57,397 nucleotides of DNA from Candidatus Nomurabacteria bacterium (lineage in GTDB: Bacteria > Patescibacteriota > Minisyncoccia > Phycocordibacterales > UBA5272), in assembly GCA_003518045.1 (NCBI GenBank), contig DOZK01000020.1, positions 19,292-76,688 of the forward strand, read 5' to 3'. The notes below the pieces were generated by a model. The model made no database searches. It saw only the letters and a program-made list of their open reading frames with translations, and was not told the DNA's origin. Each line of letters opens with the position of its first letter. Within the stretch, counting starts at the first letter, position 1. Of this stretch, positions 1,209 through 54,346 are shown one piece after another. The position numbers and the translations under genes were made by a program.

Positions 1209-1254
1209 GTGAGGAATGTTAGGGGGTAAATTATAAAACTTTTGTATTTTATCT

Positions 1255-1414
1255 TGTCATACTCGCGAAGGCGGGTATCCAGAGTCTTCTGATTTAAGTA
1301 AGCAGTAACCAGTGGGCAGCCTGCCTCGCCGGCAAGGCGGGTAAGCAGTAATACAAATGCAGACACTGGACCCGCCAGCCGGCGAGGCAGGTTCCCGTTT
1401 TCACGGGAATGACA
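1255..1414. repeat. TGTCA...TGACA multi-hairpin intergenic repeat, long variant (copy 1)
   Basis: Starts TGTCA-[TACTCGC gaag GCGGGTA]-TCCAGAGTC and ends CAGACACTGGA-...-[TTCCCG ttttca CGGGAA]-TGACA. The interior is homologous to 29020-29133 (gtaagcagtaaccagtgggcag ... cagtaatacaaat.cagacactggacccgcc). Confidence 0.8.
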
Positions 1415-1452
1415 TGAGTGCGGGTTTCGTAATTCAAAGTAAGCTTATAAAG

Positions 1453-20630: not shown

Positions 20631-20728
20631 TGTCATCCTAGGCTTGACCTAGAATCCAGTGTCCACTGGATTCCAAATCCTCGCCTTCGTGATTACACTA
20701 TGGCGTGGCAAGCAAGTTTGGAAAGACA
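20631..20728. repeat. TGTCA multi-hairpin repeat (copy 2, third hairpin expanded/degenerate)
   Basis: TGTCA-[TCCTAGG cttga CCTAGAA]-[TCCAGTG tc CACTGGA]-[TTCCAAA ...39 nt... TTTGGAA]-AGACA. Confidence 0.7.
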
Positions 20729-24242: not shown

Positions 24243-24277
24243 CAGACACTGGATTCCAAATTAAATTTGGAATGACA
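24243..24277. repeat. partial TGTCA-family repeat (one and a half hairpins)
   Basis: cagaCACTGGA-[TTCCAAA ttaa ATTTGGAA]-TGACA. Confidence 0.6.
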
Positions 24278-24317
24278 TGAATACGAATTTGTATTACTAC
24301 GCACTACGCACTACTTA

Positions 24318-25898
24318 CTAACAACTTGCATCTGGCGGTAATATCCTTTGCTTAATATAAGAAACATCAACCCCTATTTTTTTATTAGTATTTAAAATAT
24401 TATTTGGGTCCCAAATATTTTTTACTTTAGAAAATATTTCAATTATTTTTGGAGAATAAAATAATGGCAAAAAGGCTGTACCAATTAGTCCGTCTCCACT
24501 GCCCGCGCTACCACTACCTTTATATTTTTTTGCTATAGAAAAACAAGCTTCAGTCGCATTTATAACTTTGTCAGCAAAAGTATTTATATCATTCGGGATA
24601 AATGTAATAACAGAAATATGCCCGCTACCTACATTTCCAGTGGTATTAAAAATTAAATGATTTTCATTATGATATTTTTCTATAGCAAGTAAAGTCTCAG
24701 GTAAATTTTCTATTGGAACAATTATTCCATCGCCTGTAATACAAGGGATTACAGTTTGGCCACTATAGCTTTCTAATAATTTTTTTACATGAGAAGGTTC
24801 AGTAAAATTATGAAGATAATTATCTCCACGCATACAAGTAATACTCTCGGAAGGTAAATTTAATTCCTTCACCAACCTTAATTGTTTTTCATGTAAAGCT
24901 TTTTCATCATTTCCTGATTGTGTAGCGACAAGCGTTAAAACATGTGGAGTAGAAGATGAATATATTTCTTTATCCTGCCCACCAAAAGTACTTGAAAGAT
25001 TTTCGAGTAAGACATCATACATAAAAAGATTATCTACCCCGTTTACTTTACAGGCCAAAATACAATCAGGAAGATTTTGATATTCTGGTATTCTTATCCG
25101 TATTGTTTTTTTAAATAGTGGTCTAGGGATAGTTCTTAATTTAATACTTGTGATTATTGCAAGAGTTCCTTGAGAGCCAATTATATTATTTATTAATTGT
25201 CTTGGCCCGATGCTTTGCCCCCAAATGTTAAACCCTGAATTATCTTCAGAACATGTTGGCTTTCCTCCACGAATAATATGTGTCTCCGTTGATAAAAGCG
25301 GGAAAAGAGATTGATAAATAGAAAGTAATTTTCCGCTCGGCGTTATTCCATCTTCGATTATATGTTGCTCCCCGTTGGAAAGAACAATAGATAATCCAAT
25401 CACCCAAGAATTAATGCCACCATGTTCAAACGAAGAGGGACTAACATTTTTTGTAGCAACAACACCACCTATTGTATCGTTATCATTTTGTTCTGTTAAA
25501 AAAGGTATCTCTAAATTCCAACCAGATAAATGTTCCCTTATTTTTTTGCAACTAACACCAGGGTCAACATTTATAATATTACCAAGCATGTCGACATGTT
25601 TTATGCGGTTAAAATATTTTGTCATATCAATTACAATGCCTTCAACTAAAGAAGCTCCGCTAGCATTGTTCCCATTACCTTTTACAGCAACTGGTATTTT
25701 ATATTCATCAGCACAAGCAATTATTTTTTTAATATCCTCTACTGTTTTTGGATAGGTAATTATATGTGGGAGTATTTTGCATGAAGAAAAATCTCGACTA
25801 TTTTTTTCTAAAGCATGATAGGAAGTATCTATTTCTCCACCTAATGTTCTTGCTAAATCTGTATAAAGTGTGGGGACTCGTGAGTTTTTAAAGTCCAT
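24318..25898 (-). CDS. FAD-linked oxidase (FAD_binding_4 / GlcD-like)
   Basis: 526 aa. N-terminal PCMH-type FAD-binding region (PHIITYPKTVEDIKKII..A....IPVAVKGNGNN..G) and a C-terminal oxidase domain. Confidence 0.7.
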   Translation of the reverse strand: MDFKNSRVPTLYTDLARTLGGEIDTSYHALEKNSRDFSSCKILPHIITYPKTVEDIKKIIACADEYKIPVAVKGNGNNASGASLVEGIVIDMTKYFNRIKHVDMLGNIINVDPGVSCKKIREHLSGWNLEIPFLTEQNDNDTIGGVVATKNVSPSSFEHGGINSWVIGLSIVLSNGEQHIIEDGITPSGKLLSIYQSLFPLLSTETHIIRGGKPTCSEDNSGFNIWGQSIGPRQLINNIIGSQGTLAIITSIKLRTIPRPLFKKTIRIRIPEYQNLPDCILACKVNGVDNLFMYDVLLENLSSTFGGQDKEIYSSSTPHVLTLVATQSGNDEKALHEKQLRLVKELNLPSESITCMRGDNYLHNFTEPSHVKKLLESYSGQTVIPCITGDGIIVPIENLPETLLAIEKYHNENHLIFNTTGNVGSGHISVITFIPNDINTFADKVINATEACFSIAKKYKGSGSAGSGDGLIGTAFLPLFYSPKIIEIFSKVKNIWDPNNILNTNKKIGVDVSYIKQRILPPDASC

Positions 25899-28934: not shown

Positions 28935-28993
28935 ACTAGTTAGGGGTTAGAAGTTAGGAGTTAGAAGTTTTTAAATTACAAAATTTGATTTTG

Positions 28994-29133
28994 TGTCATT
29001 CCAAACTTGATTTGGAATCCAGTGTCTTTAATTTAAGTAGGCAGTAACCAGTGGGCAGTAATCAGTAATACAAATACAGACACTGGACCCGCCTTGCCCG
29101 GCGAGGCAGGCCCTGATTTTCATCAGGATGACA
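28994..29133. repeat. TGTCA multi-hairpin repeat, long variant (copy 4)
   Basis: TGTCA-[TTCCAAA cttga TTTGGAA]-TCCAGTGTC...cagtaaccagtgggcag...CAGACACTGGA-[cccgccttgcccggcgaggcagg]-[CCCTGAT tttc ATCAGGA]-TGACA. Confidence 0.8.
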
Positions 29134-37800: not shown

Positions 37801-38463
37801 ATGAAAGGAAAGTTTATTGTAATTGAAGGAACTGACGGCTCTGGAAAAGGGACGCAAGTGAAACTTTTAATTCAGCGTTTAAAAGCCGATGGTGTTCCTG
37901 TCGAAATGGTGGACTTTCCTCAATATGAAAATCCATCGAGCTATTTTGTTGCAAAATATTTACGTGGTGAATATGGTACAGCGGAAGACGTTGGTCCATA
38001 TCGTGCATCAATGTTTTACGCACTTGATAGATATGATAAATCTTTCGAAATTAAAAAATGGTTAGACGAAGGAATATATGTGATAGCCAATAGATATGTT
38101 TCTGCGAATATGGGGCATCAAGCCGGAAAGATTGACGACTCGGTGGAGCGCGATAAATATTTAGAGTGGCTTAATAATCTTGAATATAAAATTTTTGGAA
38201 TACCTGTGCCGGACCAAACTATTTTTCTATTTGTTCCACCAGAACTTGGACAAAAAATGGTAAATCATAAAAATGAGCGTAATTATACAAATGGAAAAAA
38301 GATGGATATACATGAGGCCGATATTACTCATTTGAAAAAGGCATCTGAGGCATATATTTATGTTGCAGAAAAATATGGCTGGAGAACTATTAATTGTTCA
38401 AAAGATGGAGTAATGTTGAGCCGTGAAGTTATTAATGAAGAAATATATAATGCGATTGCTTAA
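37801..38463 (+). CDS. tmk: thymidylate kinase
   Basis: P-loop FIVIEGTDGSGKGTQ and the DRY-type motif (ALDRYD). Confidence 0.88.
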   Translation: MKGKFIVIEGTDGSGKGTQVKLLIQRLKADGVPVEMVDFPQYENPSSYFVAKYLRGEYGTAEDVGPYRASMFYALDRYDKSFEIKKWLDEGIYVIANRYVSANMGHQAGKIDDSVERDKYLEWLNNLEYKIFGIPVPDQTIFLFVPPELGQKMVNHKNERNYTNGKKMDIHEADITHLKKASEAYIYVAEKYGWRTINCSKDGVMLSREVINEEIYNAIA

Positions 38464-38485
38464 TTACAAAACGCACCTTCTTGTA

Positions 38486-38548
38486 TGTCATCCTGATGAA
38501 AATCAGGATCCAGTGTCCACTGGATTCCAAATCAAGTTTGGAATGACA
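38486..38548. repeat. TGTCA multi-hairpin repeat, archetypal 63-nt three-hairpin unit (copy 5)
   Basis: TGTCA-[TCCTGAT gaaa ATCAGGA]-[TCCAGTG tc CACTGGA]-[TTCCAAA tcaag TTTGGAA]-TGACA. Three 7-bp hairpins are closed by a 5-bp stem. Confidence 0.85.
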
Positions 38549-38580
38549 CAAACACAAGTTTCCTGATTTAAAAAATATTT

Positions 38581-39003
38581 ATGTTTAAACTAAAAATTAA
38601 AATCTTAAATAAAGAGGCAAAGATACCAAGCTACGCCACAGCCGGGGATGTTGGATTGGACATGTATTCTCTCGAAGATAAAATAATGAAACCAGGCGAG
38701 CATCATATTTTCTTTGTTGGGTTTGCATTAGAGTTTCCAATTGGATATGGAGCTTTTGTGAAAGATAAGAGTGGTATCTCAAAAGCCGGGCTACATACTA
38801 TGGGTGGTGTATATGATGCAGGGTATCGCGGAGAATATAATGTTCATCTTGTAAATTTAAGCGACAAAGATTATGAGATAAAAAAGGGAAACAAAATTGC
38901 GCAACTAGTTATTTTGTCGGTAGAGCTTCCAGAAATTGAAATAGTTGATGAACTTTCAGAGTCAAAAAGAGGAGAGGGAAGGTTTGGGAGTACGGGGAAA
39001 TAG
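38581..39003 (+). CDS. dut: dUTP diphosphatase
   Basis: AGDVGLDMYS, GVYDAGYRGE, RGEGRFGSTG. Confidence 0.9.
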   Translation: MFKLKIKILNKEAKIPSYATAGDVGLDMYSLEDKIMKPGEHHIFFVGFALEFPIGYGAFVKDKSGISKAGLHTMGGVYDAGYRGEYNVHLVNLSDKDYEIKKGNKIAQLVILSVELPEIEIVDELSESKRGEGRFGSTGK

Positions 39004-47345: not shown

Positions 47346-47397
47346 TTATTCTTCAGTTTTTCACTGGACCAATTCTTAATTACAAAACTCCAACGCA

Positions 47398-47498
47398 TGT
47401 CATTCCAAACTTGATTTGGAATCCAGTGTCCACTGAAATTATAAGGCACTGGACCCGCCTTGCCGGCGAGGCAGGTCCTGATTTTCATCAGGATGACA
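47398..47498. repeat. TGTCA multi-hairpin repeat, four-hairpin variant (copy 6)
   Basis: TGTCA-[TTCCAAA cttga TTTGGAA]-[TCCAGTG ...18 nt... CACTGGA]-[cccGCCTTG ccgg CGAGGCagg]-[TCCTGAT tttc ATCAGGA]-TGACA. Confidence 0.85.
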
Positions 47499-47574
47499 CG
47501 GGGAAACATTGGTGTCGTAATTGCCTTAAAAGTAAAGAAGTTGCAATTCTATATGTTTTTGTTACTATGAAAAT

Positions 47575-50245: not shown

Positions 50246-50319
50246 TGTCATTCCCGCGAAGGCGGGAATCCAGTGTCCAAATGAGTATGGGCCTGGATTC
50301 CCGCCTTCGTGGGAATGAG
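50246..50319. repeat. TGTCA multi-hairpin repeat (copy 7, partly degenerate)
   Basis: TGTCA-[TTCCCGC gaag GCGGGAA]-[TCCAG ...19 nt... CTGGA]-[TTCCC gccttcgt GGGAA]-TGAG. Confidence 0.7.
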
Positions 50320-54279: not shown

Positions 54280-54346
54280 TGTCATTCCCGCGAAGGCGGG
54301 AATCCAGTGTCCAGAACCTGGATTCCAAATCAAGTTTGGAATGACA
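54280..54346. repeat. TGTCA multi-hairpin repeat (copy 8)
   Basis: TGTCA-[TTCCCGC gaag GCGGGAA]-[TCCAG gtgtccagaac CTGGA]-[TTCCAAA tcaag TTTGGAA]-TGACA. Confidence 0.85.

Follow-up and report, generated by a model that had tools for sequence, protein, structure and literature searches.

The window analysed in this work is a stretch of DNA of 57,397 nucleotides (C11:19292-76688) from a genome of Candidatus Nomurabacteria (CPR/Patescibacteria), labelled G000, which consists of 825 kb in 37 contigs with 35.6% G+C. A 63-nt element (38486-38548), hereafter the archetype, is located between the dTMP kinase (tmk) and dUTPase (dut) genes. The archetype reads TGTCA, three hairpins, and TGACA exactly as the original prediction had described it. 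The entity that is repeated genome-wide is shorter. It is ~32 nt long and consists of TGTC, an 8-bp stem beginning with AT, a loop, the complementary stem, and CCAG(TGTC). The true unit is half of the reported 63-nt element, and the archetype is a tags-outward pair of units with overlapping tails. Together with two outer arms, the archetype forms a 107-nt composite (38462-38568) that occupies nearly the whole tmk-dut spacer. The features of this composite are as follows.

38462..38472, plus strand: outer arm AATTACAAAAC, 13 nt outside the left tag, overlapping the tmk stop codon
38486..38517, plus strand: left unit; tag TGTC (38486-38489), hairpin ATCCTGAT-GAAA-ATCAGGAT (38490-38509), tail CCAGTGTC (38510-38517)
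38518..38548, minus strand: right unit; tag TGTC (38545-38548), hairpin ATTCCAAA-CTTGA-TTTGGAAT (38524-38544), tail CCAGTG (38518-38523)
38558..38568, minus strand: degenerate outer arm, AATCAGGAAAC on the minus strand

The loops of the units are either 4 nt (GAAA, GAAG, GCAG, and GGAG) or 5 nt (CTTGA), and one stem-loop type is ATTCCAAC-GAAA. Of the 206 units of G000 that were detected by their hairpin, 178 carry the TGTC tag. A second hairpin, CCTGCCTCGCCGGCAAGGCGGG, lies between the first hairpin and the tail in 27 units. The three-hairpin junction with a closing stem that had been proposed for the archetype is recovered as the predicted single-strand fold of the doublets (Z-scores of -4.4 to -5.75 in five folds). 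This four-way junction is a valid predicted fold of the doublet. What has been defined by biochemistry as the unit of recognition is the single tagged hairpin.

The dUTPase encoded beside the archetype (38581-39003) is 41-50% identical to those of most members of the genus, including the syntenic sister genome G014, and 69% identical to that of G022. In contrast, most of the flanking proteins are 65-98% identical to those of G014. The dUTPase gene may have been replaced in this genome.

The other seven copies that had been reported for the window are present at their coordinates, and the genome census identified no further copies in the window. The copy at 24243-24277 had been described as partial, but it is a complete single unit. 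These copies are listed below.

1229..1434: long composite; outer arms 1229-1239 and 1424-1434, left unit 1255-1286, heptamer-satellite centre, and a right extended unit that ends at 1414 and has an extra CCTGCCTCGCCGGCTGGCGGG hairpin
20631..20728: doublet; left stem with one mismatch, right hairpin loop with a 34-nt insertion
24243..24277, minus strand: single unit with the tag at its right end; ATTCCAAAT-TTA-ATTTGGAAT, tail CCAGTGTC
28994..29133: long doublet; left unit TTCCAAA, CAGTAAC/CAGTGGG heptamer centre, right extended unit TCCTGAT, outer arm 28974-28984
47378..47522: composite 3' of ileS; outer arms 47378-47388 and 47512-47522, doublet 47398-47498 with left unit TTCCAAA and right extended unit TCCTGAT
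50246..50319: doublet; left unit ATTCCCGC-GAAG-GCGGGAAT (fits the published SRM motif), right unit degenerate
54280..54346: heterodimer; left unit ATTCCCGC (SRM-matching), right unit ATTCCAAA

The central 16-mer of the archetype, TCCAGTGTCCACTGGA, has five matches in the window (both strands, at most two mismatches) that represent three loci, where the expectation from shuffling is 0.02. The 34-nt loop insertion at 20679-20712 is CTCGCCTTCGTGATTACACTATGGCGTGGCAAGC, and similar insertions in loops or stems occur in units of G021 (L208) and G001 (L220). Tandem heptamer satellites of varied sequence (CAGTAAG/CAGTGGG, CACTACG, GTTAGRA, TTTCAAT, and GAAACTG) adjoin units at 1287-1361, 24290-24320, 28940-28970, and 29028-29075 of the window. 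They are also found beside units at many other loci of G000 and upstream of several genes.

The contig ends of G000 are repetitive as well. Nearly all of the 74 ends consist of about ten recurring sequences of 20-25 nt. One of them, GGTTAATTAACATTTAGTGTTG, is found at ~20 ends, and others are CCTGAATTCTCGCCCTAATCGCA, CTTGAATTAAACCCTCAACCTA, TTCCTATAATACAAAACAGTA, and TGAATTACGAAACCCCAAA. Judging from these ends, the assembly seems to be missing at least one long high-copy repeat.

Unit census, stem pairing, and genomic context

The genome-wide census that the original prediction had proposed as a check identified ~200 units (201-206) in G000. The units form 137 clusters, among which are 54 tags-outward pairs, 39 right-hand singles, 36 left-hand singles, and one tags-inward pair. 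All copies had been described as intergenic. This is correct for the window, whereas 10 of the 137 clusters genome-wide lie in frame inside long ORFs.

Stem pairing was assessed with two tests in which pairing is not presupposed. Anchoring on the TGTCA...CCAG flanks only gave 173 matches in G000, and 156 of these can form a stem of 6 bp or more. Shuffled genomes gave 17-33 matches, with such a stem in 0-1 of them. Covariation was then scored on 47 distinct flank-anchored units. The stem covariation that had been claimed from the window is borne out, with 96.5% of cells paired compared with 79.2% after shuffling, and none of 500 shuffles reached 96.5%. Cells with changes on both sides of a pair number 68 compared with 18.8 in the shuffles. 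Compensatory changes occur at six of the eight stem pairs, and every slid control collapses.

Most dimers of G000 (49 of 54) are heterodimers. The commonest pair is TCCTGAT with TTCCAAA, which accounts for 13 of the 54 doublets. This pair occurs in discrete length classes and identical 63-nt copies are found at several loci, which indicates that dimers propagate as dimers. Eleven copies were recovered by pattern, and four of them share an identical 6-nt centre.

One alternative is that the family acts primarily at the RNA level, as terminators, as mRNA-stabilising 3' structures, or as a structured non-coding RNA family. The strong predicted fold, the covarying pairing, and the location of the window copies after genes agree with such a role, and CGTC-tagged REPs in other species also cluster near the 3' ends of genes. 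However, the terminator and mRNA-module functions that had been suggested find no positional support in the genome. The contexts of the clusters (72 tandem, 25 convergent, and 18 divergent) follow the spacers that are available (464, 97, and 96), and the median distances to the upstream stop codon (110 nt) and to the downstream start codon (116 nt) are alike. The orientation bias of single units is weak (25 vs 13), the hairpins are not followed by a U-tract, and units are also found in frame inside genes. The search of the window against Rfam at the gathering threshold returned three tRNAs only and no match to the units. The published SsnA nuclease, which is introduced below, does not bind RNA. 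A primary role at the RNA level is improbable.

A conventional MITE would explain the composites differently. Under this reading, an unassembled transposase would move the whole 107- to 206-nt composite with the outer inverted repeat AATTACGAAAC at its ends, and the Ssn hairpins would be cargo or a preferred target. The outer arm AATTACGAAAC is enriched beside the tags (9-16 nt outside the tag in 43 of 200 units, compared with 1.3% in the background). Both arms are present in six doublets of G000, and three of the window copies are two-armed. Six contig ends stop in TGAATTACGAAAC, which hints at a longer repeat with such a terminus. Nevertheless, four fifths of the units are without an outer arm, and so are the copies that carry ssnA. 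Target-site duplications are not visible in 11 aligned copies or in the comparisons with the sister genome, where the intergenic flanks are too diverged for exact empty sites to be recognised. No IS110-type gene was identified, and of the transposase families covered (the Y1 and IS110 types) none is linked to the TGTC family. In addition, CGTC dimers nested in unrelated palindromes have already been described (PMC3733652). We regard a MITE as an unlikely source of the family, about on a par with the RNA-level role.

The predicted partner nuclease

The Ssn system was described in 2025 for Neisseria meningitidis (NMV_0044, CDD cd10448; Chenal et al., Nat Commun, PMC11893778). SsnA is a 94-aa single-domain GIY-YIG nuclease that binds the hairpin of its target, the NTS (CGTCATTCCCGCGMAVGCGGGAATCYRG), as single-stranded DNA (PMC11893778). 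Binding depends most on the C after the palindrome, the cut falls a few nucleotides upstream, and the three bases preceding the palindrome matter for cutting (PMC11893778). The enzyme is inactive on the reverse strand, on double-stranded DNA, and on RNA, and the activity of the Neisseria enzyme is abolished when the stem sequence is changed with pairing kept (Chenal et al., PMC11893778). Activity has been shown for the enzymes of Neisseria, N. elongata, N. wadsworthii, and Wolbachia (PMC11893778).

Genes enclosed by a tags-outward pair of units were identified in five cases in G000, and two of these pairs enclose a 94-aa GIY-YIG gene. The two coding elements have the order left unit, ssnA, right unit.

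G000 C36:21482-21856: left unit, ssnA, right unit; protein at C36:21536-21817
G000 C16:8179-8544: left unit, ssnA, right unit; protein at C16:8230-8511

Each gene starts 5-25 nt downstream of the left tail, and its stop codon directly adjoins the right tail. Both proteins match Pfam GIY-YIG (PF01541) over their whole length (E = 2e-15 and 3e-18). The GIY/YIG tyrosines and the glutamate, as read from the sequence, are Y7, Y18, and E65, one off the published Y6, Y17, and E64. These two are the only SsnA-type genes that tblastn identified in G000. Bracketed homologues are also found in G001 (three, on C12, C33, and C31) and in G010 (one, on C57), and the brackets of G001 are near-perfect inverted copies of the unit of roughly 30 bp.

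Close homologues of SsnA (at least 53% identity) are confined to G000, G001, G010, and G021, all of which belong to the eight unit-bearing genomes among the 41 compared (one-sided Fisher p ~7e-4, uncorrected for relatedness). Two unit-bearing genomes, G014 (26 units) and G029 (13 units), are without a close ssnA. The C36-type gene has the same gene close by in G001 and G021, which is compatible with a resident gene and equally with a mobile one. In proteobacterial contigs, homologues 54-60% identical to the CPR proteins adjoin the exact 27-mer GTCATTCCCGCG-NAG-GCGGGAATCCAG.

The published SRM pattern has 99 matches in G000 compared with 0-1 in 10 shuffles. The archetype lies outside the pattern, as does the AT-rich half of the family, which nevertheless has the tag, the geometry, and the tail in common with it. 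These AT-rich stems (TCCTGAT, TTCCAAA, and TTCCAAC) make up about half of the units and include both halves of the archetype. The published SRM search motif undercounts low-G+C variants.

The original prediction had named a RAYT/IS200-like transposase as the cognate enzyme. In a classical REP/REPIN system, a RAYT (Y1 HUH) transposase moves the elements in trans, and such elements would share the architecture of a tag and a hairpin that forms inverted dimers. G000 has four Y1-transposase matches, namely one IS200-type TnpA with its own ends and three RAYT-like proteins of 207-256 aa. One RAYT-like protein was scanned and matches PF01797 (E = 1.5e-9) and NF047646 (E = 1.9e-13, below the curated cut-off of NF047646). 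However, the hairpins beside each RAYT-like gene are particular to that gene and in one case GTAG-tagged, and no RAYT-like gene is flanked by TGTC units. The Y1 genes also do not track the units across the 41 relatives, where G014 and G029 carry units without a Y1 gene and 16 unit-free genomes have one. The literature likewise found no RAYT link for CGTC REPs. A RAYT partner is very improbable, the least likely of the alternatives considered.

The three RAYT-like genes (C9:230-451, C9:2729-2950, and C33:12792-13019) lie outside the window and are bracketed by their own hairpin doublets, GTAG-TAGGCCCGGCCTA, TACGAAGGCAAGGCCTTCGTA, and CAAGGCAAGGCCTCGGTG, which have few copies. The genes and their hairpins are predicted to make up a REPtron system of low copy number in this CPR genome, distinct from the TGTC family. 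A truncated TGTC unit directly adjoins the C33 copy on its right side. An IS110-type recombinase is the enzyme of a Neisseria phage that targets dRS3. It was also considered as a partner and was rejected, as G000 has no such gene.

The partner of the TGTC units is a predicted Ssn nuclease of the GIY-YIG type and not a RAYT/IS200-like transposase. The element at the tmk-dut spacer is most probably (about 0.8) a dimer of two Ssn-related hairpin motifs (NTS/SRM; CGTC/TGTC-tagged REPs) with the tags outward and the CCAG tails facing each other. The 63-nt element is a putative gene-less relative of the NTS-ssnA-NTS element. The suggestion that the copies are REP/BIME-like was right in kind, and the anatomy of the unit is that of the CGTC/TGTC-tagged REP superfamily.

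Evidence for turnover of the units among related genomes

The distribution of the units in the genus is patchy, with counts of 145, 35, 26, 8, 3, 2, and 1, and otherwise 0. Across 13 regions aligned between G000 and G014, many units of one genome have no counterpart in the other, a positive outcome for the mobility check that had been proposed. About eight sites are occupied in both genomes and have conserved flanks but a different distal stem and loop. In one example, CCGC-CTCC-GCGG is replaced by CAAC-TTTC-GTTG and the surrounding 40 nt are unchanged.

Units are inserted in frame in at least four housekeeping-type genes, which encode a UvrD-like helicase, MnmA, an FNR-like protein, and a reverse transcriptase, and also in one giant ORF of 3,614 aa. 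In translation the inserts read VIPAKAGIQ...LDSRLRGND without a stop codon, and they add 22-28 residues to proteins such as MnmA and the UvrD-type helicase. In the FNR-like gene, a 66-nt in-frame doublet is missing in G014. A full-text literature search for the encoded peptides (IPAKAGIQ and others) returned no match.

At the C16 ssnA site, next to the same upstream gene, G014 has a single perfect palindrome, TGTCATTCCCGCGCAGGCGGGAATGACA, in place of the left unit, ssnA, and right unit. This type of palindrome is found nowhere else in the 41 genomes. The palindrome can be read as the collapse of two hairpins with the loss of ssnA, which would explain the units without a nuclease in G014. Solo palindromes were considered as a general target site and were rejected, as just one is present in the 41 genomes.

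An empty site for the archetype was not found in seven other assemblies, all of which carry the element or break inside it. The tmk-dut spacer is 3 nt in the relative G022, which is too diverged to give exact boundaries. On one scaffold (L151, ENA ERZ28563784 scaffold_1081), the archetype and dut are joined to a TraC/TraG-like conjugation gene block and not to tmk, with the break exactly at the left tag of the archetype. The join reflects either recombination at the repeat or an assembly error in which an identical 63-nt copy, for example the one at C36:20930, was bridged.

The mechanism proposed here is drawn from the enzymes described in PMC11893778. Each unit would fold into an 8-bp hairpin once the DNA is single-stranded, as on the lagging-strand template or during DNA uptake. 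SsnA would bind the hairpin and the following C and cut a few nucleotides 5' of the tag, and it would not act on double-stranded DNA or RNA. Repair or copying after the cut, together with recombination between palindromic hairpins, could spread, reshuffle, and delete the units. Several points count against the Ssn reading. The two nucleases of G000 face about 30 stem variants, although the Neisseria enzyme does not tolerate a changed stem sequence, and the stems of the archetype fall outside the SRM pattern. The units of G014 and G029 without a close ssnA and the missing empty site for the archetype are further such points.

A further and tentative proposal, which we consider possible at well below even odds, is that the Ssn family in this CPR lineage is actively turning over through an undescribed process of copying, conversion, and deletion. 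This process would involve cassette-like exchange of hairpin tips, collapse of the two units and the ssnA between them to a single-palindrome footprint, AT-rich hetero-pairs that may need a relaxed or altered SsnA specificity, and the outer inverted repeat. If it is true, it would provide the first comparative evidence of the movement and decay of Ssn elements, and Ssn elements would remodel proteins in minimal genomes. The swapped tips, the in-frame gain, and the one-hairpin footprint at an ssnA site are concrete cases for tests of spread and decay.

CPR bacteria depend on DNA uptake. The array could be purely selfish or it could be used by the host, for example in policing incoming single-stranded DNA as in Neisseria. 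The repeat that is named here takes a noticeable share of scarce intergenic DNA (~200 units in 825 kb) and breaks assemblies. The two enzymes and the AT-rich sites could add specificities to the proposed single-stranded DNA tool set.

Comparison with known systems

The exact 27-mer GTCATTCCCGCG-NAG-GCGGGAATCCAG is found in more than 120 contigs from a very wide range of phyla. Its hosts include Neisseria, a Rickettsia endosymbiont, Planctomycetes, Dehalococcoidia, Saccharibacteria, and a Nanoarchaeota bin. It is also found in more than 120 IMG/VR viral or prophage contigs (L232-L311), several of which have 3-5 copies, and such contigs are possible vehicles for the spread of the NTS across phyla.

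The family in G000 resembles the Ssn/NTS system in its 27-28-nt core, in which the 27-mer is present verbatim, and in the conserved tag and C after the palindrome. The predicted 94-aa single-domain GIY-YIG nuclease, the NTS-ssnA-NTS architecture, the hundreds of copies, and the symbiont-type host are also shared. The differences include a CPR host with 36% G+C, AT-rich stems outside the SRM pattern in about half of the units, and a predominance of heterodimers (49 of the 54 dimers). The share of clusters in frame in long ORFs (10 of 137) also differs from N. meningitidis, where 2% of the NTS lie inside genes (PMC11893778).

CGTC-tagged REPs (CGTC-1 to CGTC-4) include dRS3 of Neisseria and RPE-6 and RPE-4 of Rickettsia (Di Nocera et al. 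2013, PMC3733652), and the dRS3/NIME elements of Neisseria have been described by Bentley et al. 2007 (PMC1797815). These REPs are defined by a tag that is often changed to TGTC, an 8-9-bp stem starting with AT, a 4-5-nt loop, and a CCA tail, and in 2013 they were apparently without a dedicated transposase (PMC3733652). The units of G000 share the TGTC variant of the tag, 8-bp stems starting with AT, loops of 4 or 5 nt, and the CCA tail. They also share inverted dimers with variable spacers, heterodimers, the lack of a RAYT association, and in-frame gene insertions such as that in the UvrD-type helicase gene. Insertion in frame into otherwise intact protein genes is likewise a feature of RPE-4 and RPE-6 of Rickettsia. 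In contrast, CGTC REPs have been reported in five phyla, none of them CPR. The mixing of 4-nt-loop and 5-nt-loop types within one dimer and the second hairpin in 27 units also set the family of G000 apart.

The likeness to REP/BIME and REPIN/RAYT elements (E. coli TnpA-REP; Pseudomonas) is more general. Tagged hairpins are arranged in inverted doublets in both, a nuclease gene is bracketed by its own repeats, and the hairpin would be recognised as single-stranded DNA. However, the tag is TGTC and not GTAG, and the enzyme is a predicted GIY-YIG nuclease and not a Y1 HUH transposase.

The findings in this work would extend the Ssn nuclease/hairpin system to CPR bacteria, whereas the enzymes characterised so far are those of Neisseria and Wolbachia alone. 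The kind of system is already known, and the AT-rich stems, the predominance of heterodimers, and the outer inverted repeat are new details.
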